Assembly (NCBI GenBank): GCA_918797485.1
Contig: CAKKNE010000005.1
Coordinates: 4,650,001-4,714,000 of the forward strand
Direction: 5' to 3'
DNA length: 64,000 nt
Source of the DNA: Pelagomonas calceolata
Lineage: Eukaryota
The notes beneath the pieces are model-generated. The model searched no databases, was not told the DNA's origin, and was given only the letters and a program-made list of their open reading frames with translations. Below, piece by piece: positions 11,931 through 30,175 of the stretch (the first letter of the stretch is position 1; every line of letters starts with the position of its first letter). The position numbers and the translations under genes were made by a program.

Positions 11931-12206
11931 TGCTGCCAGACGGAGCGTTTTCGCCTCACGAGCGTTTTGAATAGGTGCGCCGTGCACGACTGCGATCGCT
12001 GGCGATCGCTGCGGTGGCGTCGTGCGTTGACGGCGTCGCACTGGCTCTATTTGTGCAGCGAGAGGCTCACCACACAAAACAGCTCCATTGACAGCAGCGC
12101 AGTCCGCTGGCCGCAGGCGAATAGAACTGGCACAGGAGCCCTGCGACTGCTAATTTATCACGCCGTCGAGCTCTAATTGCTGCGGACGCGCGGACGCAGG
12201 AGAACC

Positions 12207-14162
12207 ATGCTGAAACTCGTGCTGTGCGCAGCAGCGAGCGCCAGCGCGACGATCGAATGGCGCGGGATCACAGCGACCATAAAGGACCGCTCCATATTGC
12301 GAGCAGTCGGTGGACAAGCGAAAGCCGGCCGGCTCCACGCCATTATGGGTCCTTCCGGATCCGGCAAGACGTCGCTGCTGAGCGCGCTGAGTGGCACGTG
12401 CGATAGGCGGCTGAAGCTGAGCGGCGATCTCCGCGCCGACGGCGTCGCGGTGGACAAGGTCGAAGGCGCCTACGTAAGACAGCAGGACGTCTTCTATCCG
12501 TATTTGACGGTGCGGGAGACGCTGACGTTCGCGGCGACGTTGCGGCTTGGCCCAGACGCAGATGTCCCGACAATCGTCGACTCGATCTTGATGAAGACGG
12601 GCCTCGCGAAAGCCGCGGACACGATCGTCGGCGACGACAAGATCCGGGGCGTGTCGGGCGGCGAGCGGAAGCGATTGGCGATTGCTTGTGAGCTTGTCGA
12701 CGACCCGGACGTGCTATTCCTCGACGAGCCGACGTCCGGGCTCGACTCCTTCGCTGCGCAGCGCGTCGTGGCGAGCCTGCGCACGTTGTGCGACGCGGGG
12801 AAGACGGTGGTATGCGTGATTCACCAGCCGTCCGGCGGCGTTTTTGCCGCCTTCGACGACCTGACGCTGCTTTCGGAGGGCGAATGCATGTATCATGGGC
12901 CGATCTGCGACCTCGACGCGCGGCTGCGCAAGGAGGGCTTCCCGCGGCCGCGGACGGCGGCGCCCGCAGAGCACGCCGTCGAAACGGTCAGTGTCAACTA
13001 CGGCTCGCCGGAGACGGAGGCGTCGTCGCGGGAGGTCTTGGCGAAGCTCTCGGACGCCTGCAAAAAGGCCGAGCGGCCCCTGCCGGCGGCGACTCCGGCG
13101 AAGACGAAGGCGACTGCTAAGGGCCCTCGCCGCCGGCCGCTGGCGGAGTTGCGATTGCTCTACCAGCGCGCCCGACGGGACGTGTCGAGGGCTAAGGCGG
13201 CTACCGCAATAAAAGCAGCGCAGCAGGTTATGACGGCCTTGATCTATGGCGGTATTTATGATCTCGACGACTCGCAGCGGTCGATCCAAGATCGCTTCGG
13301 TTTGTTGAGTCTCTGTGTTATCGGCGCGACGAACCTTGCGATCGCCTCGACGATCCGTGCCTTCCCCAAGGAGAAGACAATCGTCCAGCGGGAGCGGAGC
13401 CCTCGATCCGGCCGGCCGATGTACGGCGCGTTGCCTTATTTGTTCTCCAAGGTTGCCGCGGAACTGCCTCTATCCGTCGGTCTGTCGTGTCTCTTCGGAG
13501 GCATCCTGTATCCGTTGGCCAAGCTAGGTAGGACCACGCGGAAGTTCCGGCGGTTCCTTGGGCTCACCGCATTAAATTCTGTCGCGGCTTCAGCGCTGGG
13601 TTTGCTGGTCGGGGCCGTCGCGCCGTCGACGGACGCCGCGCTGGCCATGTTTCCACCGATAATAGTGCTGATGATCATTTTCAACGGAAGCAACATCAGC
13701 GACGAGTCGACGCCGAAACCCATCAAGTTCCTGCCCAAGCTGTCGCTGGTCCGGTGGGGTTTTGAGGGGCTGGCCGTTAACGAGTTCGAGGGCCTCGAGT
13801 TCAAGCCGTTCACGCAAATCGGCCGGCCCTCTTTAAAGACTGGCGCCGACGCGCTGACGCGTCTGTCGTTCGAGGACTCGACAATAAAGCGGACCGCGGT
13901 CGCGCAGGGCGCCATCCTCGGCGCGTGCTATTTTCAGACCTATCGCGTCCTCAAAAACGCGCGGCCGCGGTACGCGACGCTGAAGCGAGCTACGGTGGTC
14001 GACGATGGCATCCGATGGACCGCGGACGCCGAGGCGCGGCTCCAGAAGATCCCGGGATTCGTCCGAGGACGTGTGAGGGGCGCCGCGGAGAAGTACGCCC
14101 GCGAGAACGGGATCACGACGATTACCGACGAGGTGTTTGTGGCTCTCAAGCCGAAAAAATAA
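12207..14162 (+). CDS. ABCG (White family) half transporter with N-terminal signal and C-terminal PCP_red-like domain
   Basis: Walker A GPSGSGKTS, signature VSGGERKR, LFLDEPTSGLDS, IHQPS, ABC2 membrane domain. The tail is WTADAEARLQKIPGFVRGRVRGAAEKYARENG. Confidence 0.9.
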   Translation: MLKLVLCAAASASATIEWRGITATIKDRSILRAVGGQAKAGRLHAIMGPSGSGKTSLLSALSGTCDRRLKLSGDLRADGVAVDKVEGAYVRQQDVFYPYLTVRETLTFAATLRLGPDADVPTIVDSILMKTGLAKAADTIVGDDKIRGVSGGERKRLAIACELVDDPDVLFLDEPTSGLDSFAAQRVVASLRTLCDAGKTVVCVIHQPSGGVFAAFDDLTLLSEGECMYHGPICDLDARLRKEGFPRPRTAAPAEHAVETVSVNYGSPETEASSREVLAKLSDACKKAERPLPAATPAKTKATAKGPRRRPLAELRLLYQRARRDVSRAKAATAIKAAQQVMTALIYGGIYDLDDSQRSIQDRFGLLSLCVIGATNLAIASTIRAFPKEKTIVQRERSPRSGRPMYGALPYLFSKVAAELPLSVGLSCLFGGILYPLAKLGRTTRKFRRFLGLTALNSVAASALGLLVGAVAPSTDAALAMFPPIIVLMIIFNGSNISDESTPKPIKFLPKLSLVRWGFEGLAVNEFEGLEFKPFTQIGRPSLKTGADALTRLSFEDSTIKRTAVAQGAILGACYFQTYRVLKNARPRYATLKRATVVDDGIRWTADAEARLQKIPGFVRGRVRGAAEKYARENGITTITDEVFVALKPKK

Positions 14163-14188: not shown

Positions 14189-16685
14189 TCACGACAGGAG
14201 CCGCTCGAGCGCTCGAGGCACGTCACCGTTCGCCTGCTGGAGGGCTGCGAGGGCACGCTTCCGCGAGAAGCCCATGGACGTAATCTGGGCCACGGCGGGC
14301 TCGTCGACTTGCGTCGGTGGCGGGGCCGCGGGCGCCGGTGCCGGCGCCGCGAGGAAGGCGTCGAGCGTCCGCGGCTTCTTCGGCGGCGGGCGCCGCGCGG
14401 GAGCGCTGCGGCGCGACTTGCGCCACAGCGCGAGTTGCCTTTCGATGTCGGCGCGCACTGCAGGCGGCAGTTCTGAGAGCGTCGCGGGGTCGACGTCGGC
14501 GCCGTCGATGCCCGCGGTCGCCCCGGGCGACGCGGGCGACGCTGGTGCAGGATGCGTGGACCGCGGCGGCGGCGGGCTCACTGGCTTGAACTTGACGTCT
14601 GCCAAGGTCTTCTGCGCCGCCGGCGCCGCGGGTTGCGGCCGCGGCGGACTCGCGGGTTTCATTTTCACGTCTTTCAGGGTCGTCTGACCTCGCGCCAAGG
14701 GCACGTACTGGCCCTCGAAGTCCGAGGACCGCACGCCCATCAATCTAATTTCCAACGGCGTGCCCGCCGCCTCCGCCTCGCCGATGGCCTCGAGGAGCAG
14801 AGGCTTCAACAGTTTGACGATGGCCTTCACCGATCGCACATACTTGTCCTTGCCCGTCTTTTTCGTCGCAGTATCTCTCGTGCTTATTCGGAAGTCCGTC
14901 GTCTTCAGCTTGAGCGTCCATTTAGCAGCCCTCATATCATGCTTTACCAAGCGCTCGGACACGAGGCCGGCGATGCGTACGAGCTTCTCCGTGAGAGCGG
15001 CGACGCCTCGCACGGGCCTGAAGGTCCGCTCGTTTCCTAGACCCTTCCGGCGAATCACGCGTTCGTCGTCCTCCTCACCATCGTCTGTTGGGCCGCCGCA
15101 TTCGCCGCAACCCAACGCGACCTCGTGGAGGAAGCCCATGGCCGCGCTCTTGCCCAGCACGCAGTAGCACTCCGGCAGGTTATCTATCAAATCACCGCAC
15201 GTCCGCACGTTCAGCGCGTCCGCGAGCTTCATCTCGAGGACGCGGCCGATGCCACCGATCTTACGGCACCTGCGCGCGTGTCGGTCAGCGAACGCCATCG
15301 ACGCGATGAAACCGCCTCAAGGACGCCGCGCGCCACGGTAGGTCCCGCAGGAATTCGAGCACGGCCGATTTTCCCGCGCCGACGCGGAATTGTCCATCGG
15401 GTTTCTTCTGGTCCGCCGCGACTTTGGCTAATCGAAAATTCGGCCCGAGGCCGCCCGACAGCGTCAGGCCGCCCGTCGCGTCCCGCACCGTCGCGCGCAT
15501 CTCGTCCAGGACTCGCTCGGCGAGCGCGCCCGCTTTGTCGTCCGCAACAATATCTAGGGCCGGCAGCGCGTCGACTGCGGCACTAATCTCGGCCAGGCGC
15601 TTTTTGACGTGTCGAGCGACGACGTCCATGTCTCCCGACGACACGTCGATGCCGCGGCCCCGCAGTTCCTCGAACGCGCCCGCCGCGTCGTCGACTAGCG
15701 ATCGCGCCCGCGCGAGCTCGGCCTCGAGCGCGGCGATCCGTTCCTCGCGGCTCGGCGGGGGCTCGTCGTCGTCGTCGTCTTCCTCGACCTCGATGACGTC
15801 TTCGTCGTCGCCGGCGGCCCGCAAAGCCTCAAGTTCCGGCTCGAGCTCCTCGACGCGCCGCGCCGCCTCGCGAGCCTCGGCGAGCCGTGACGCGCCGCTC
15901 TCCAGCGCCTCGTCCGCGAGCATGGCTCGCGCCGATGCGTGGTCGCCGCAGGCCACGCGGCATCGAAGGTAGCGCGTCAGGTCGATGTACGCTTCGTCCG
16001 CCGAGTAGGCCCTAAAATGCGGGTCGTATTGCGCGAATATAGCCCGTGCGATGCCCGCGACGCGTTCATACTTGGCGAAGTCGGGCGATACGAAGACAAG
16101 CTCTGTCTTGGGCATGCCGAATTCCGGGCCGCGCCGACACAGCGCCTGGCCAATAAAACCAGGCATGGCGCTGCGCACGCCCCACTTCCTCGCGACGTAG
16201 TTCGCTGTGCTGATCATGCCCTGTGCGCAAGTAAACCAGTGAGTCGCGTCGATGGCGTGTAGCGCTTTGCAATTGATTTCTACGCAGTGCGCGACGATGC
16301 CGCCCACGGCGACCGGCTTGTCCTTGAGCTCCGGCCGGTCCCGAATCTCCACGGCGGCGTAGAACATGTCGAAATCAACCACAGCACAGCACGTCCCGGC
16401 CGCGTCGAGCTCGTGCCGCCGCTTCTCGAACCGCGCCTCGGTTTTGGTCAGGTGGTGTCTTGCTACACTTCTCTGGGTGGCATCAAACGTCGCGAGCTTC
16501 TTGCGCGCCGTGGCGATCCATTCCTGCGAATTGTCCCTTTTTTCCTTCTTCTCGTTCGTATACTTGCTGTCCCCGCTCATCTCGAGGATGATCGCGTTGA
16601 TCTTCTGGCGGTCGACGTCCTGCGTGCCCTTGTCCGCCGCGTAGACGAGGAGGTTTTTTGCGACTTGTTCATCGTTATCCGCCAT
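14189..16685 (-). CDS. POLK: DNA polymerase kappa (Y family, DinB); exons 16685-16296, 16220-15337, 15269-14189
   Basis: N-clasp-like start, VDFDMFYAAVE, STANYVARKWGVRSAMPGF, SADEAYID, LAKVAADQKKPDGQF. Removing two GT-AG introns restores PVAVGGI|GMISTANY and LRDLP|CRKIGGIG. C-terminal UBM-like and UBA motifs. Confidence 0.92.
15270..15336 (-). other. spliceosomal intron (67 bp) in POLK
   Basis: GTGGCG...GCGCAG joins two frames into LPCRKIGGIG. Contains CGCCATCGACGCG. Confidence 0.8.
16221..16295 (-). mobile_element. degenerate introner-derived intron (75 bp, in-frame) in POLK
   Basis: GT plus 6 nt, then TIR-like CTGCGTAGAAATCAA ... TTTACTTGCGCACAG. It interrupts the conserved PVAVGG-GMISTANY motif. 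Confidence 0.7.
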
Positions 16686-17129: not shown

Positions 17130-18170
17130 ATGCCCCGCCGCCGCAACACGCCCGGCGGCCCCGCCGCGTTTGCGGCCTACGCGAACGGCCCGGGCGCCGC
17201 GCCGCCGCCGCCGCCGCGGCCGTCCAAGGCCAAGGCCGCCGCCGCGTATGCCTTCCGCTTCGTCAAATCGCCGGACAACTGGTGGCTCCTGCTCCTGCTC
17301 GCGTCCGCGGCGCTCTACGCGCAACTGTTGGACGCGGCCCTCGCCCCGAAGGCGCTGGAGGGCTTCGCCGTCACCGGGGACGCGAAATTCTACCGCGACG
17401 TCGTCGCGCGGCACGCCAAGGCGCGCGTCCTCGTCGACGGCCTCGGCCCGCTGGCGTCGCCGGTCTGGCGCGCGCACGACGACGCGAACGACCTGCTCTT
17501 CGCCGAGGCGCCGGCGCAGCGCGTCTGGCGCCACGAGGACGGCACGGGGCTCGTGCGCGTCGGCGCGAGCGTGTTCCTCGACGCGACGGGCCCGCTCGCC
17601 TGCGTCGCGACGGCCGAGCTCGACGCGCTCGTGCTCTGCGGCGACCAGAACGTAGTGACCGTGGCGGACGACGGGGCGCGAGAAACGCTCTGGGCCGGCG
17701 CGGCGACGGCTATTTCGCGCGGCGCGACGCACGTTGCGGGCGAGCGGAACGGCACGTTCGTCGTCGAGTTCCGCAACGGGACGGCCGTCGCGGCGCTGGC
17801 AGCGGCGCCCCTGGCTCTCGCGTTCTCGCCCGACGCCAAGACGCTCTACGTCCGCACCGTCGATGCCGTCCTCGCGCTCGCTTGTGCCGACTCTTGCGCA
17901 GAGGCACGCGTCTTCCACGAGGCTGACCTTGGTGAAGGCGCGGGCCTCGCCGTCGACGGCGCCGGGCGCGTCTACGCGACGACAGAGAATGGTGTTGCGG
18001 TCCTGGCGGCGCCCGAAGGCGCGCTCCTCGGCACGCTCGAGGTTGACGACACCCCAACGGGCCTGGCGTTAGCGACGGACGCTCACCTCTACGTGACGAC
18101 CGCGGGCGGGCGGCTGCTGCGGGTTCCGGTGCGGCGGGGGGTGCGGCCGGCGGACGTCGTGGCGAGTTAA
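17130..18170 (+). CDS. SMP-30/gluconolactonase-like beta-propeller protein with N-terminal membrane anchor
   Basis: GLGPLASPVW, LAFSPDAKTLYV, GLAVDGAGRVYA, GVAVLAAPEGALLG, PTGLAL...LYVT. TM WWLLLLLASAALY. An alternative ATG is at 17061. Confidence 0.7.
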   Translation: MPRRRNTPGGPAAFAAYANGPGAAPPPPPRPSKAKAAAAYAFRFVKSPDNWWLLLLLASAALYAQLLDAALAPKALEGFAVTGDAKFYRDVVARHAKARVLVDGLGPLASPVWRAHDDANDLLFAEAPAQRVWRHEDGTGLVRVGASVFLDATGPLACVATAELDALVLCGDQNVVTVADDGARETLWAGAATAISRGATHVAGERNGTFVVEFRNGTAVAALAAAPLALAFSPDAKTLYVRTVDAVLALACADSCAEARVFHEADLGEGAGLAVDGAGRVYATTENGVAVLAAPEGALLGTLEVDDTPTGLALATDAHLYVTTAGGRLLRVPVRRGVRPADVVAS

Positions 18171-18201
18171 TAGTGTGTTCTACCTACCTTACTAAATACC
18201 C

Positions 18202-21069
18202 TTATCCCGCGAGCTTCTCGAGGAGCTCGTCGGCGCACCGCTGGCGGTTGTAGAGCGTGTGGCCGTGGAGCCCCTCGCGGCCCGACAGCATCATCGCAAG
18301 GCACAGCTGGAGCTCGCAGACGTGGTGCGTTTCGCGGTCGGTCTTCAGGATGATATTCACCATCACGTCCCGCCACTTCGACGGTGGTGGATGGTTGTGG
18401 CGGTCCTTGACGCGGACGACCGAAATGTCTTTTGCCCGGGCGAGGGATTCTAGGAGATACGTCAAGTCCCCGAGCGTGTCACAGACGAGCATGTCGCGAT
18501 TGACGTCGCAGACCTTCGACGTGTCGTCCGGCGCTTCGGGCTTCAGAGCACATTTTTCGACGATGCGCGCGGCGCCCTTGGGCGGAGGTTTCTTGCGGCT
18601 GACGTTGCTGCCAGCGGCAACCGTGAGTCTTTCAACGAACTTGTCAAACTCTGGCGCCACGTCAAGCGCGTCCGCCAGCAGCGCCGGCGCCGACGCGGCG
18701 CGCTCCAGCGGCGGCGCAGACGAGGCACCCAGCGCCGGCGCCGACTCCGCGCGCTGTAAGCACGTGCCAGACGCGCCGGCCCGGAGAGTCTCTATGGCCT
18801 TGTCGTAGGCGTCTTTTGCCTGCTTGCCCGCCGATTCCAGCGCAGTGTCGTAGATGCTGATGTAAATCTTACTAAAGAAATCCGTCGCCTGGTCGCTGAC
18901 GGCACGCAGGCGTGCCTCCACGCGCTTCGGGTCGCCCGCGAGTTCCTTCTTGATCGCCTCATGGATGCGGCTTTGCAGGAACTTGCATTCGGCCTCGAGT
19001 CGTGCGGCCTCGAGTCGTGCGCGCGTCACGTTCGAGGCTTCGAACTTCGAGCGCTCTTCCGCGTGCAGGCGCTGCGCGCGGTTGGCGAAATAGTAATCAC
19101 CCTTGAGCTCGTCGCGTCCCGCGAACTCGACAAATTCCTTGAGAGGCCCCGGGGGCATTTCCATGCTCTTCTTGGCCTTCTTCTTGCTTGCAAAGTCCGC
19201 GATGATTTGTCGGGCCCTTGCGATGTCTACGTCTTGTCGATCTGCGCCGAGTTCATCCAGCAGCTCGTCGATGCAACCTTCCGTTTTGAGCAGCCACGGG
19301 GGCCATTTTTTGTTTGAGAGGTCTTTTACCGTTACGGCATTACCATCGATCAGGTCCTTCAACTGTTTCATCTTTTTATCCTTCTGTTTCGTTATTTGCT
19401 CCGGCGTCATCGCGTGGACCTTCATTGCGTGGACCTTCCTAGCGAGAGGCCGACGCCATCGGTAGGCTATGGCGGCGGCGCAACACAAAACTAAGGATAT
19501 CACGATGATTGCGACGAGCATTTCCACGCTCGGGCCGGCATCCTTGGAGGTCTTACACTCTTTTAGGATCCAGCAATGAGGTCCGGGTGCCGGTTCCGGA
19601 GGGATCTCGAACACGTAGGCCGAGCCCGCGCCGTCTCGCCGGGTCCCGACCACGACGGTGGTGCCGGCAATCGCCACGGAGATGCCGGCTATATTCGAGT
19701 ACGCTGCTGCGTCGGCTGGCATCAGCTTGGCGATTTGGTTGTACGTAACGACTTCTGGAGACACATAATAAGCGTAGCAGTCTCTCCAAGTCGTGTACGT
19801 GCTGCTTTCGGTCGTGCGAAAGACGTAGACCGCGCCACCGGTGCCAGCGTTGTAGGCTCCGACCACGATAGTGCTGCCGTCGACTGCCACGGACCAGCCG
19901 AAGTGGTCGCCCGCAGCGGCGTCGGTGGCCGTCAGCTTGGCGACTTGGTCGAATTTATAAAACCATGAGTGAGCGCAGAGAGGGGGATCTAGGCGTGGGC
20001 CGAAGTACGTGAGAAAAACGTAGGCCGAGCCCGATTCGTTGTCGTCCCCGGGGGCCCCAACCACGACGGTGTTGCCGTCGATAGCCACGGACCAACCAAA
20101 CCGATCCCCCTCGACGGAATCATCTGCCGTCAGTTTTTCCCACCCCCATTGACTGTAGACGTAGGCAGCTTCGGAAAAGCCCCCGACCACGATCACGGGT
20201 TGCGTGAACTCGGTGGTAGTTAAAACATAGTTCCCACCTGGGTCGTAAGTACCGCCGGTATAAGAGTCAGCGTACTCGAATATCGCCACGGAGTAGCCGA
20301 AGGCGTCGCCCGCCGAGAAAGTGTCGTCAGTGTACGGGTCCCCGGTATTTTGGGACCCCGGTGGCAAGGACGCCGGCACCGAGCCCAAATTGTCCACGTA
20401 GTCCTCGGTGCTTCCATAACCAAGGTCGGGTCTAGTACCTGGCGACCACGTGGCGCCATCGTCACTCGTCTGGTATAGGTAGACAAGTCCCATATCAGCT
20501 CGGGTAATGAGATTTGCCATATCATCCCAGACCGACACGTCCTTGCCGTAGGCTCCGACCGCAACGGTGCCTTGCTTGATCGCCACGGACCAGCCGAAGA
20601 GGTCGTTCGCCGCCGGCGTGGCAGGCCATAGGTTCGCCGCGGCGTCGGCGGCCGTCCGCTTGGCCACCAGCCCATACGTAAGGCCGTCGGTCGTGCGGAA
20701 GACGTAGGCCGAGCCACCAGGGTCGTCGTAGGGAGACCCGACCACGACTGTATCGCCGTCAATCGCCACAGCGATGCCGAACTGGCCGTGCGCCGCAACG
20801 GCCGTCAGCTTGGTCACCTGGGCAAACGTTGCGCCGCCGTCGTCCGTACGGAATATGTAGACAGAGCCCGGCGTCGCCGGTACGGTGTTGTTGCCTGGCA
20901 CCCCGATCACGACGGTGTCACCGTCGATGGCCACGGACCAGCCGAAGTCGCTCGCGGCGTCGCTAGCCACGAGCTCTGCGATCTGGCGATACTGAAGAGG
21001 TGCGCTGTCCGGGGCGGCGGGCGATAGCAGATGCAGCCCGACAATCCAGAACAAATACCCCTGCATCAT
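18202..21069 (-). CDS. type I membrane protein: signal peptide, FG-GAP repeat beta-propeller, TM, coiled coil, RelA/SpoT-synthetase-like nucleotidyltransferase domain
   Basis: About 7 repeats of FGWSVAIDGDTVVVGA...GSAYVF. TM MLVAIIVISLVLCCAAAIAY followed by RWRR. C-terminus PKGAARIVEK..VCDVNRDMLVC..RVKDRHNHPPPSKWRDVMVNI..HVCELQL..HTLY. Confidence 0.82.
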   Translation of the reverse strand: MMQGYLFWIVGLHLLSPAAPDSAPLQYRQIAELVASDAASDFGWSVAIDGDTVVIGVPGNNTVPATPGSVYIFRTDDGGATFAQVTKLTAVAAHGQFGIAVAIDGDTVVVGSPYDDPGGSAYVFRTTDGLTYGLVAKRTAADAAANLWPATPAANDLFGWSVAIKQGTVAVGAYGKDVSVWDDMANLITRADMGLVYLYQTSDDGATWSPGTRPDLGYGSTEDYVDNLGSVPASLPPGSQNTGDPYTDDTFSAGDAFGYSVAIFEYADSYTGGTYDPGGNYVLTTTEFTQPVIVVGGFSEAAYVYSQWGWEKLTADDSVEGDRFGWSVAIDGNTVVVGAPGDDNESGSAYVFLTYFGPRLDPPLCAHSWFYKFDQVAKLTATDAAAGDHFGWSVAVDGSTIVVGAYNAGTGGAVYVFRTTESSTYTTWRDCYAYYVSPEVVTYNQIAKLMPADAAAYSNIAGISVAIAGTTVVVGTRRDGAGSAYVFEIPPEPAPGPHCWILKECKTSKDAGPSVEMLVAIIVISLVLCCAAAIAYRWRRPLARKVHAMKVHAMTPEQITKQKDKKMKQLKDLIDGNAVTVKDLSNKKWPPWLLKTEGCIDELLDELGADRQDVDIARARQIIADFASKKKAKKSMEMPPGPLKEFVEFAGRDELKGDYYFANRAQRLHAEERSKFEASNVTRARLEAARLEAECKFLQSRIHEAIKKELAGDPKRVEARLRAVSDQATDFFSKIYISIYDTALESAGKQAKDAYDKAIETLRAGASGTCLQRAESAPALGASSAPPLERAASAPALLADALDVAPEFDKFVERLTVAAGSNVSRKKPPPKGAARIVEKCALKPEAPDDTSKVCDVNRDMLVCDTLGDLTYLLESLARAKDISVVRVKDRHNHPPPSKWRDVMVNIILKTDRETHHVCELQLCLAMMLSGREGLHGHTLYNRQRCADELLEKLAG

Positions 21070-28797: not shown

Positions 28798-29299
28798 TGT
28801 TTTATGCTGTGCTGTTTTATGCTGTGCTGTGCTCTGAGACAGCTGCTCTCGAGGATCACGACGAGTTCAAACAAACAATGATGGCAGCGATCAATGGTGT
28901 TTATGACAGTAGTTTTCAACGCATTTTGCGCAGTGATAAAGGCGTGTGAGGCACGATTAGGACCGCGCAAAACCAGTGTGCTCAAAGCAAATTCAGCGTC
29001 GCATCGACCGGAGAAAGCGCTCGCAAGGCTCATTCGGCGACTATAACTGGTACCGTGAGGCTCTCGACGAGTTTCTGTGAGACGCGTCGACTCGAATCAA
29101 AACGGGTTTTACAACGATTATTTTGCGCGTAATTTGCTGTTTTAGACATCATAGAGACGCCAGACACAGCGCGCGCCGTCGATTTGTCTCCCCTGCACTG
29201 CCGCCGCCGCTTGCTACTTGTTTCCGCGCCTTTCCGCGGCCTCAAATACCGCATTTGCGCTGTCCGCAGCCTCAGCTTAAAATACGAAACACAAACGCC

Positions 29300-30175
29300 A
29301 TGACGATGCGCGCCGTCCTTCTCTACGCCGCCGCGGCGCTGCTCGCCAAGGCCGACGACCCCTGGGGCCTCGAGCACAAAGACGCCTACGACGTGTTGAA
29401 AGTGCCATTCGACGCGTCGCGCGAGCAGATCAAGCAGGCGTACAAGGCGCGGTCGAAGGAGCTGCATCCCGATAAACTGAGGAAAAGCGATAACGAACCA
29501 TTTCGCCAGCTGCGCAAGGCCTATGATATTGTGGGCTTTCCCCGCTCCAAAAAGAAGTACGACAAGGAGGCCCGAAAGAGGCACAAGCACGCGCCGCGGC
29601 GCGCGGAGAACACGCTCGCGGCGGACCTGGCGGGCGACCGCAAGCCCATCAATGTCGTGGTGGGGCGGTTGGAGAGCGGCCGCGCGCTCTTGTTGGACGA
29701 GGCCCTGGTGTCGCGGGACGGCTCGCACGAAGCGCGCTTCGAAGTGGACGGGAATCTGCGGGTGAGGGAAGCCGGTTCTCGCTCCATAGTCTGGCAGACC
29801 TTCGCCAAGCCGACGCGGGCGAAGCACGGCTTCGGCTGGCTCCTGCTGCAGCACGACGGCAACCTCGTGCTTAATAGTGGAGACAAGGGCCACGTCGAGA
29901 GCGTGATCTGGTCTTCCAACTCGGCGGACCCCGGTGCTTCGAAAAGTTATTTGGAGCTCGACGACGACGGCGGGTTGAGGGTGCATCGGAGGACGGCGGA
30001 CAACGCCTACGCGCCGTGCGCGTGGGGCTCGATGGGCTGCGGCGGCGGCCTCGCGCCCGTGCGGAACTCGATTAGGGTGCTGTTGCGGTCCATGTTCTAC
30101 CCGTCGGCGCTGAACCGCAAGAAGGGCGTCCTCTCGTCGCTGGTTGGTTTTCTCAAACGGTGCTTCTTCCTCTAA
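29300..30175 (+). CDS. secretory-pathway J-domain protein fused to a bulb-type (B) lectin-like domain
   Basis: Signal MRAVLLYAAAALLAKA. J domain DAYDVLKV...IKQAYKARSKELHPDK. Lectin repeats FEVDGNLRV..IVWQT, LLLQHDGNLVL..VIWSSNS, LELDDDGGLRVH. Confidence 0.8.
   Translation: MTMRAVLLYAAAALLAKADDPWGLEHKDAYDVLKVPFDASREQIKQAYKARSKELHPDKLRKSDNEPFRQLRKAYDIVGFPRSKKKYDKEARKRHKHAPRRAENTLAADLAGDRKPINVVVGRLESGRALLLDEALVSRDGSHEARFEVDGNLRVREAGSRSIVWQTFAKPTRAKHGFGWLLLQHDGNLVLNSGDKGHVESVIWSSNSADPGASKSYLELDDDGGLRVHRRTADNAYAPCAWGSMGCGGGLAPVRNSIRVLLRSMFYPSALNRKKGVLSSLVGFLKRCFFL

Follow-up and report, generated by a model that had tools for sequence, protein, structure and literature searches.

RelA/SpoT homologue (RSH) synthetase domains have been described in several contexts. 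Apk1 and Apk2 are (p)ppApp synthetases (PMC10083569), Tas1/Apk1 being a secreted Pseudomonas type VI effector (PDB 6OX6); RelA/SpoT-like toxin domains are found in bacterial polymorphic toxins (PMC3482391), and RelA/SpoT-like domains also in phage polyvalent proteins (PMC5512222). Eukaryotic examples are the plastid RSH of diatoms (PMC6881373), the orphan divRel of diatoms, fungi and Dictyostelium (PMC3153485), and fungal NOD-like receptors (NLRs) that carry predicted N-terminal RelA_SpoT effector domains (PMC4986451). Here, we analysed a gene on the minus strand of a 64,000-nucleotide stretch of DNA from the alga Pelagomonas calceolata (contig CAKKNE010000005.1, positions 4,650,001 to 4,714,000; referred to as the window, to which all coordinates refer). 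The gene encodes a real, transcribed and conserved receptor-type protein with an intact-looking RSH domain that belongs to a large unannotated eukaryotic family.

In receptor enzymes, examples of which are LRR receptor kinases, receptor guanylyl cyclases and TIR receptors, a signal peptide and a variable ectodomain are joined through one transmembrane helix to a cytosolic enzyme. Judged from its sequence, the algal protein is a receptor enzyme by architecture and Tas1/Apk1-like by its ATP-site motifs, with an acceptor motif of neither ppGpp nor ppApp synthetases. As in other receptor enzymes, the output domain is shuffled between surface and LRR or ankyrin cytosolic sensors; it differs from them in that the output is an RSH pyrophosphokinase fold, for which no report of such a role was found.

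The RSH fold is common to the algal domain, Tas1/Apk1, Apk2 and SaEAS (8VX3). With Tas1/Apk1 the domain shares the ATP-site motifs P-x-K-xxx-R-xx-[EQ]K and D-xx-R as well as E-x-Q and G-H-xx-Y, at about 18% identity. In contrast to the secreted Tas1/Apk1, the algal protein is eukaryotic and the domain lies behind a transmembrane helix and a propeller; its acceptor strand reads W-R-D-x-M-x-N instead of Y-x-G-x-N, and neither a PAAR or MuF delivery domain nor an adjacent immunity gene, as known for Apk1/Apk2, was found by Pfam in the protein or the flanking open reading frames (ORFs). RelP/RelQ (6FGK, 6EWZ, 5DED) and long RSH are the best fold matches, and the Mg-binding Asp and Glu as well as the Gln and His positions are kept, whereas the algal protein lacks R-x-K-xxx-S, D-xxxx-R and S-x-H and has a membrane receptor architecture without hydrolase, TGS or ACT domains (no HD, TGS or ACT match in Pfam). 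RSH1-4 of plant and algal plastids and divRel are likewise nuclear-encoded RSH synthetase domains in algae, but RSH1-4 have canonical motifs and hydrolase domains, and none is described as a transmembrane receptor; in the algal protein a hydrolase domain is missing, and propeller and transmembrane helix precede the synthetase-like domain. There is also no Phe-type plastid-targeting residue at what we take to be the likely cleavage site. Fungal RelA_SpoT-NLRs similarly join a eukaryotic sensor to a predicted RSH output in combinatorial domain assortments, but they are cytosolic NACHT proteins and not membrane receptors; Pfam matched no NACHT or NB-ARC domain in the algal protein (P0001).

A preliminary description of the window, made from the DNA letters, had suggested that this could be an undescribed signalling or immunity system. 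Literature searches, with subscription papers outside their coverage and some slash spellings missed, returned no paper on the family or on a transmembrane RSH receptor. A eukaryotic receptor with a predicted RSH output has a precedent in the fungal NLRs. Little is known of how abundant marine protists sense viruses, bacteria and grazers, and the alarmone chemistry of eukaryotes is generally placed in plastids alone. The shuffling of a conserved and apparently intact pyrophosphokinase domain among surface receptors and cytosolic repeat sensors speaks for a signalling or cell-arrest pathway that has been overlooked, and the altered acceptor strand may reveal new RSH chemistry.

The C-terminal domain is modelled with an RSH synthetase fold

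A model of aa 630-955 built from an 86-row alignment reached a predicted local distance difference test (pLDDT) score of 92 and a predicted template modelling score of 0.88. Foldseek searches against the PDB gave RSH synthetases in all 25 listed rows (best E 5.3e-6), with 44 chains at E ≤0.001. In the VIA structure comparison, RelP ranked first (Z 12.0, root mean square deviation 3.0, 149 residues aligned), followed by CapRel (10.7), with SaEAS at 9.2 and Tas1 at 8.8; the top 10 rows were all RSH, and unrelated rows appeared from Z 7.5. In the Atlas, five unnamed clusters and a bacterial one in which PF04607 makes up 31% matched with TM-scores of 0.75-0.77; for a GTP pyrophosphokinase cluster the score was 0.68. 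The best match among viral structure models was a phage protein named RelA/SpoT (E 8.5e-8), the third one named Tas1 (1.3e-5). Weak giant-virus matches to the model were a Fadolivirus protein (named nucleotidyltransferase relA/spot, E 3.7e-3) and a Hyperionvirus protein (E 8e-3).

The RSH-like fold expected from the preliminary description was thus recovered throughout the top rows of both structure searches, whereas the Pfam family RelA_SpoT (PF04607) alone remained below its cut-off (22.4 bits, E 1.5e-4, gathering score 27). The relatives P0007 and P0008 (67-69% identity) pass this cut-off at 29.8 and 29.6, as do 5 of 97 family matches; an NCBIfam search of the domain found nothing. Against a family profile of 149 rows from which close relatives were left out, the domain scored 192 bits, the best of 500 shuffled sequences 6.0.

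The motifs K831-xxx-R835-xx-E838-K839, C854-D855-V-N-R858, R886-V-K888-D889-R890, W899-R-D901-V-M-V-N905, C918-E919-L-Q921 and G936-H937-xx-Y940 are present. They comprise all those named before, the first being K-xxx-R and not K-xx-R, and they include the metal-binding Asp and Glu, kept as D855 and E919 by alignment. The domain itself starts near aa 794 (18690) and not at about 18620, with homology extending up to about aa 638 (19158). Among 172 aligned domains, conservation was 97% for K831, 99% for R835, 97% for K839, 99% for D855, 99% for R858, 98% for K888, 96% for W899, 99% for D901, 100% for E919, 98% for Q921 and 98% for H937. All 11 site residues, as assigned by alignment, are kept in 137 of 148 full-length domains when Tyr is allowed for Trp.

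The ATP site is of the Tas1/Apk1 type by sequence

FaRel2 residues R64, K66, S70, K74, D90, R95, Y128, E145 and Q147 (PMC11782079) served as numbering reference. K66, K74, D90, Y128, E145 and Q147 correspond to K831, K839, D855, W899, E919 and Q921, whereas R64, S70 and R95 fall on P829, R835 and M860, the Arg sitting at 858 instead. In place of the canonical syn1 R-x-K-xxx-S and the Arg at syn2 Asp+5, as carried by RelP and RelQ (R-x-K-xxx-S and D-I-A-G-I-R), the domain has P829-x-K831-xxx-R835 and D855-xx-R858, that is, the Tas1-type syn1 and the syn2 Arg three residues after the Asp that characterise Apk1/Apk2. The same D+3 Arg is present in SaEAS (D121/R124, PMC12691689). The family profile aligns to P-I-K-xxx-R-xx-Q-K and D-L-A-R of Tas1 (E 0.072).

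Two proteins, P0096 and P0021, likely represent the nearest bacterial link to the eukaryotic family, both being themselves of likely bacterial origin. The query found P0096 at E 2.1e-17 (HH probability 98.7), and P0096 in turn found Tas1 at E 1.9e-10 and RelP at 1.2; the values for P0021 were 2.5e-10 for Tas1 versus 0.67 for RelP, so that both connect the family to Tas1 at E about 2e-10. P0096 has 3,127 aa and contains eCIS_core, two tandem Tas1-like domains and a calpain-type peptidase. By motifs and by these links, the nearest characterised type is Tas1/Apk1 and not RelP/RelQ or RelA/SpoT, the last of which had served for the motif comparison before.

Topology and transcription of the gene

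The window positions 21069-18202 (minus strand) form a single uninterrupted ORF of 955 aa, as initially described, and the identical protein sequence is present in NCBI, UniRef and nr, its contig measuring 5.29 Mb. The signal peptide proposed earlier corresponds to an N-terminal hydrophobic stretch at aa 5-16 by hydropathy, which is kept in P0003, P0004 and P0005. About seven FG-GAP repeats had been noted: the motif scan gave seven starts (aa 42, 97, 158, 256, 324, 390 and 461), and Pfam matched FG-GAP_2 (PF14312) at E 2.4e-75 in 6 stretches. In the full-length model, which is uneven (mean pLDDT 68.5, ectodomain mostly 30-75), the N-terminal part of low confidence matched β-propellers in all 50 rows shown (Z 21.6-25.0), and in the Atlas comparison the ectodomain had TM-scores of 0.65-0.71 to FG-GAP clusters. 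Only one segment, aa 517-537, passes the hydropathy threshold; the transmembrane helix thus lies at 19521-19459 and is followed by RWRR, in line with the single helix placed before at about 19460-19525. With 6 K/R after the helix versus 3 before, a signal peptide and a positive-inside flank, the predicted type I single-pass topology was likewise borne out, as judged by hydropathy and charge only; an exported synthetase with the domain outside was rejected on the grounds of domain order and charge. On the cytoplasmic side, the helix of the full-length model continues into confident helices, and what had been called a coiled coil models as a multi-helix bundle. This bundle (aa 638-765) is a candidate regulatory or autoinhibitory part. 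Its matches to Cry6Aa and to designed bundles were put down to general helical similarity. A SAM domain was also considered for aa 541-650, and this stretch gave no match to the SAM_2 region of P0055. The homodimer prediction of aa 630-955 scored 0.00 and was used neither for nor against the assignment.

In the poly(A) run X24, all 17 bins between 18218 and 21175 were covered by reads in the orientation of a minus-strand RNA, and the plus-strand neighbours gave the opposite read orientation. In runs X1, X2, X4 and X7, of which the RNA origin is guessed, contigs crossed the transmembrane region at 18958-20136 (X1), 18708-19700 (X4) and 18822-19585 (X7) with 0-1 positions differing from the gene, and the X4 contig overlapped the X2 contig 18229-19063 by 356 bases. 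No joint was listed within 18150-19700 in the RNA-run contigs; the joints listed (at least 15) all lie among the FG-GAP repeats, none has intron ends, and they derive, with their loose ends, from paralogous FG-GAP repeat genes. In the stranded RNA, short reads and contigs revealed no splice joint between ectodomain and tail, and the expectation of a single transcript holds as far as these data reach. The intact architecture was found three times in metagenomes (P0004, P0005 and a 939-aa ORF of contig L001, 85-87% identity), and the 3' flank of contig L001 matches the same neighbour gene as in the window.

In the comparison with L001, the ratio of nonsynonymous to synonymous divergence (dN/dS) of the enzyme domain was 0.33 (Fisher p 1.7e-4), and purifying selection acts on this domain. 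Propeller blades 3-4 were only 70% identical at the amino acid level, with 23 gap codons, versus 95-97% for the other blades. Synonymous divergence varied along the gene from 0.03 to 0.25; this pair is therefore mosaic, and the dN/dS ratios are rough.

The domain is fused to diverse sensors in a large family

A phmmer search with the 182-aa domain gave 1,088 clusters at E ≤0.001 and 310 at 1e-10 among 1.84 billion representatives. Domain architectures were scanned for the 97 proteins of at least 330 aa among 149 new proteins listed. Repeats occurred in 36 of them (19 LRR, 11 DUF285, 5 ankyrin, 1 HEAT); further partners were decapeptide repeats (6), Ephrin_rec_like (5), EF-hand (3) and TIR (2), and single fusions to ART, SAM, GBP-PH-FYVE, TRP and 5'-nucleotidase were seen. 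RelA_SpoT was matched at E ≤0.001 in 24 proteins, 33 were without any family, and no NACHT or NB-ARC was matched by Pfam in this set. P0033, P0085 and P0158 are the proteins in which the domain is joined to TIR or to the PH, FYVE and guanylate-binding protein domains. In P0105, from Haptolina brevifila, and P0173, ankyrin repeats, an ADP-ribosyltransferase and the RSH-like domain form one chain; by domain assignment, a single eukaryotic sensor here carries two enzyme domains of toxin type.

A hydrophobic segment upstream of the core was present in 22 of 168 proteins, which is likely a floor since many rows look like fragments. Receptor forms comprise signal-LRR-transmembrane (P0120), signal-NHL-Cys-rich-transmembrane (P0121), EPTP-Cys-rich-multi-transmembrane (P0118), DUF285-transmembrane (P0136) and others, so that the search for the same domain behind other ectodomains, suggested in the preliminary description, found LRR, NHL, EPTP and Cys-rich ones; 12 of 14 transmembrane forms examined had a K/R excess on the enzyme side. 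In the close clade, the same tail lies behind FG-GAP repeats, Cys-rich repeats (P0006) or, without a signal peptide, seven WD40 repeats. The latter paralogue (L002:1544-4433) has the same helical and RSH module at 68% identity, with a frame change between two ORFs; its MGGG start is a possible myristoylation motif. The loci L003-L006 are 32-36% identical, to helical parts only.

On a tree built from the domains of 18 receptor and 32 cytosolic forms plus 2 from an outgroup, the two forms are intermingled; the 50 proteins, all with callable architecture, were chosen by hand. The receptor versus cytosolic label needs 8 changes on this 52-row tree (7-8 in bootstrap trees), and 0% of the bootstrap trees allow 1. 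A count of 16 transmembrane changes from an earlier tree was set aside because many of its rows without a transmembrane segment were fragments.

The few taxa with a name are Haptolina brevifila, Guillardia theta and a dinoflagellate, and the Atlas clusters are most often diatom (3-4 records each). In a tree-of-life RSH census (PMC7229694; preprint 10.1101/575399), the number of RSH given for Guillardia theta is 0, and the types given for the pelagophyte Aureococcus are Rsh1 and Rel alone (PMC7229694). As XP_005840511.1 of Guillardia theta holds the domain, in two copies, the family was at least partly missed by this census. Scans that see only close relatives gave 17 pattern matches and 0 confirmed relatives in viral contigs, and 51 pattern matches with 0 confirmed for the P0096 domain in GTDB genome contigs. 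By tblastn, the domain matched phages (1 record) and plasmids (4 records) at E 0.1-0.2 only, and PADLOC gave 1 weak match, in 1 of 38 members.

Proposed function and alternative explanations

Because a predicted outer propeller with variable loops is combined with an inner alarmone-synthetase-like fold, the protein is likely a receptor that would switch such an enzyme on. That it is an active receptor pyrophosphokinase of some product appears quite probable. Our best explanation is more specific and falls slightly short of an even chance: a ligand of non-self or environmental origin would bind to the outer propeller, and the cytosolic RSH-fold domain would make a (p)ppApp-like product. Fold and topology are predicted here, and we infer that the enzyme is active, that the helical bundle gates it, that its acceptor is an adenylate and that it serves a response to non-self. 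Binding of the ligand to the variable loops of the propeller would move or cluster the transmembrane and juxtamembrane helices, which would relieve the restraint by the family helical bundle that otherwise holds a potentially toxic enzyme off; the cytosolic domain would then transfer pyrophosphate from ATP to the 3'-OH of a nucleotide, most likely an adenine nucleotide, and the (p)ppApp-like product may act as second messenger or growth-arrest effector in a non-self response. The repeated fusion of the domain to sensor-type domains, the single ORF, its transcription, the order of its domains, the kept site residues, the purifying selection on the enzyme domain and the variable ectodomain loops support this explanation.

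The choice of acceptor depends on the third motif. SxH is the syn3 motif of the ppGpp type and is described as recognising guanosine, GxN that of the Apk type (PMC12226406); PMC6793942 offered no information on base specificity. The preliminary description had doubted GTP/GDP as acceptor, which agrees with the replacement of SxH by D-x-M; its reading of KWRD..VN as the altered GY.S.H is refined in one respect, as the Asn is not in the place of the His, where Met903 is found, and Asp901 and Asn905 are family-specific (D901 99%, N905 88% in the family). Since the acceptor strand fits neither published signature, the product cannot be read from sequence. We favour an adenine acceptor as the most likely one, given the loss of the guanosine motif and an ATP site that appears to be of the Apk type.

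Several results weigh against a Tas1-like, (p)ppApp-producing receptor of non-self signals. The strand D901-V-M903 matches neither SxH nor GxN, with the Asn two residues further on at 905; the Arg two residues before K831 is missing (P829); the domain-only profile matches RelP best (E 1.1e-4), Tas1 being absent from its 13 rows; and in structure searches RelP/RelQ come out level with Tas1 or ahead of it. The product does not follow from kinship, as VpEAS and AaEAS make only (p)ppGpp and SaEAS both (PMC12691689), and a motif swap did not convert Apk2 (PMC12226406). The neighbours of the gene among the flanking ORFs are housekeeping genes with no defence cluster, and strongly supported branches of the tree force only 2 label changes. 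The dN/dS of blades 3-4 (1.25) is not significantly above 1 (p 0.5), and that of the whole gene (0.75) comes from a single pair with patchy synonymous divergence. The RNA is sparse, with empty bins in X21 (2) and X22 (3) and only 4 reads in X23, and in the RNA runs examined no single RNA molecule spanned the whole gene.

The RelP/RelQ rank in structural and domain-profile matches would fit the same receptor enzyme making (p)ppGpp in the cytosol. With W899, the base-stacking position still has an aromatic residue, and some exported synthetases make only (p)ppGpp (PMC12691689). We nevertheless regard this product as quite unlikely, given the replacement of SxH by D-x-M and Gly936 (92% in the family), which precedes the last His as in the G-H of Tas1. 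In RelP-type enzymes, this position is occupied by Glu. It is also unlikely that the domain pyrophosphorylates a macromolecule or an unusual acceptor, i.e. tRNA or other RNA 3' ends as for CapRel and FaRel2, or another nucleotide. CapRel was the second VIA match (Z 10.7), acceptor-side residues that are not in characterised enzymes are near-invariant (R890, D901, N905, H916-x-C918, R931), and the N-terminal bundle could bind a large substrate, like the N-terminal helices of FaRel2 (PMC11782079); the ATP-site motifs of FaRel2 (R64, S70, R95) are, however, canonical and not of the Tas1 type (PMC11782079), and the sequence bridges P0096 and P0021 point to Tas1.

A domain that binds nucleotides or acts as a scaffold without regulated enzyme activity, or an adhesion, ER or endomembrane protein without control by the ectodomain, is somewhat unlikely: without catalysis, it would be difficult to account for Mg- and ATP-site residues that are near-invariant across the family; moreover, none of the 11 site residues is lost, and the domain is under purifying selection. 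The Pfam score below cut-off and the departure of the close clade from the family consensus at P830, N857, H891, K898 and L924 would fit such a protein, and signal peptide and transmembrane helix do not show a plasma-membrane location. An artefact, in which an FG-GAP gene and a separate RSH-like gene were joined by chance or by misassembly, is very improbable and already largely refuted by the same intact architecture in other assemblies (P0004, P0005 and the L001 ORF, 85-87% identity) and by the RNA-run contigs crossing the transmembrane helix with 0-1 differences, even though numerous FG-GAP paralogues draw cross-mapping reads and no single read spans the gene.

Beyond this gene, a receptor with (p)ppApp-like output would have a wider counterpart if microbial eukaryotes (pelagophytes, haptophytes, cryptophytes, dinoflagellates and probably diatoms) had domesticated a toxin domain of bacteria, similar to Tas1, and made it the output of an entire receptor system, a scenario that we put forward tentatively and with the balance against it. 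FG-GAP, LRR, NHL, EPTP and Cys-rich receptors together with LRR, ankyrin and WD40 cytosolic sensors would then signal via a 3'-pyrophosphorylated nucleotide, a messenger new to the eukaryotic cytosol, and this system would be to the immunity of plankton what TIR and cGAS signalling are elsewhere.

Features of the gene and its surroundings

Table 1. Position of the gene and of its predicted parts in the 64,000-nucleotide window
Feature	Window positions	Strand	Basis and remarks
Whole ORF	18202..21069	-	955 aa, predicted type I membrane protein; RNA; intact 939-aa counterpart on metagenome contig L001
Predicted signal peptide, aa 1 to about 22	21004..21069	-	Hydropathy, core aa 5-16; cleavage site inferred
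Seven FG-GAP repeats, predicted β-propeller ectodomain, aa 29-490	19600..20985	-	Pfam PF14312, motif scan, model
Variable indel-rich inserts, blades 3-4, aa 141-312	20134..20649	-	Comparison with L001; candidate ligand-binding surface
Transmembrane helix aa 517-537, then RWRR aa 537-540	19459..19521	-	Mean hydropathy 3.01
Juxtamembrane helices, aa 541-637	19159..19449	-	Model; confined to the close clade, with 5 close relatives giving the only strong matches
Family-associated helical bundle, aa 638-765	18775..19158	-	pLDDT 88-98 by blocks of ten; family homology to about aa 638
Disordered linker with duplicated RAxSAPAL unit, aa 766-793	18691..18774	-	Sequence; pLDDT <50 at aa 773-783
RSH synthetase-fold domain, Tas1/Apk1 type by sequence, aa 794-955	18205..18690	-	K831, R835, K839, D855, R858, K888, W899, D901, N905, E919, Q921, H937

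Neighbouring ORFs match EMG1, adenosine deaminase, ABC transporter, IMS polymerase, SGL, Est1, mitochondrial carrier, MFS and DnaJ plus lectin. The GC content at third codon positions of the gene (0.66-0.82 by part) is near that of five neighbours (0.70-0.88). Contig depth was higher in run X4 (128-166 versus 4-10), which was not taken as induction. Within 19610-20990, the FG-GAP motifs show many loose ends, repeat-to-repeat joints and a very high summed contig depth, which point to a large FG-GAP gene family in Pelagomonas calceolata. A transcribed RSH-domain paralogue that ends differently at the 3' side is suggested at 18256-18261 by a few reads differing at two positions and by one contig that departs from the sequence at 18261. 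An IMS-family (Pol kappa-like) polymerase gene at 14189-16685 is seen as two ORFs and is probably split by introns; an ABC-2 transporter at 12177-14162 carries a C-terminal PCP_red domain, and at 29123-30175 a DnaJ domain is joined to a bulb-type lectin domain.

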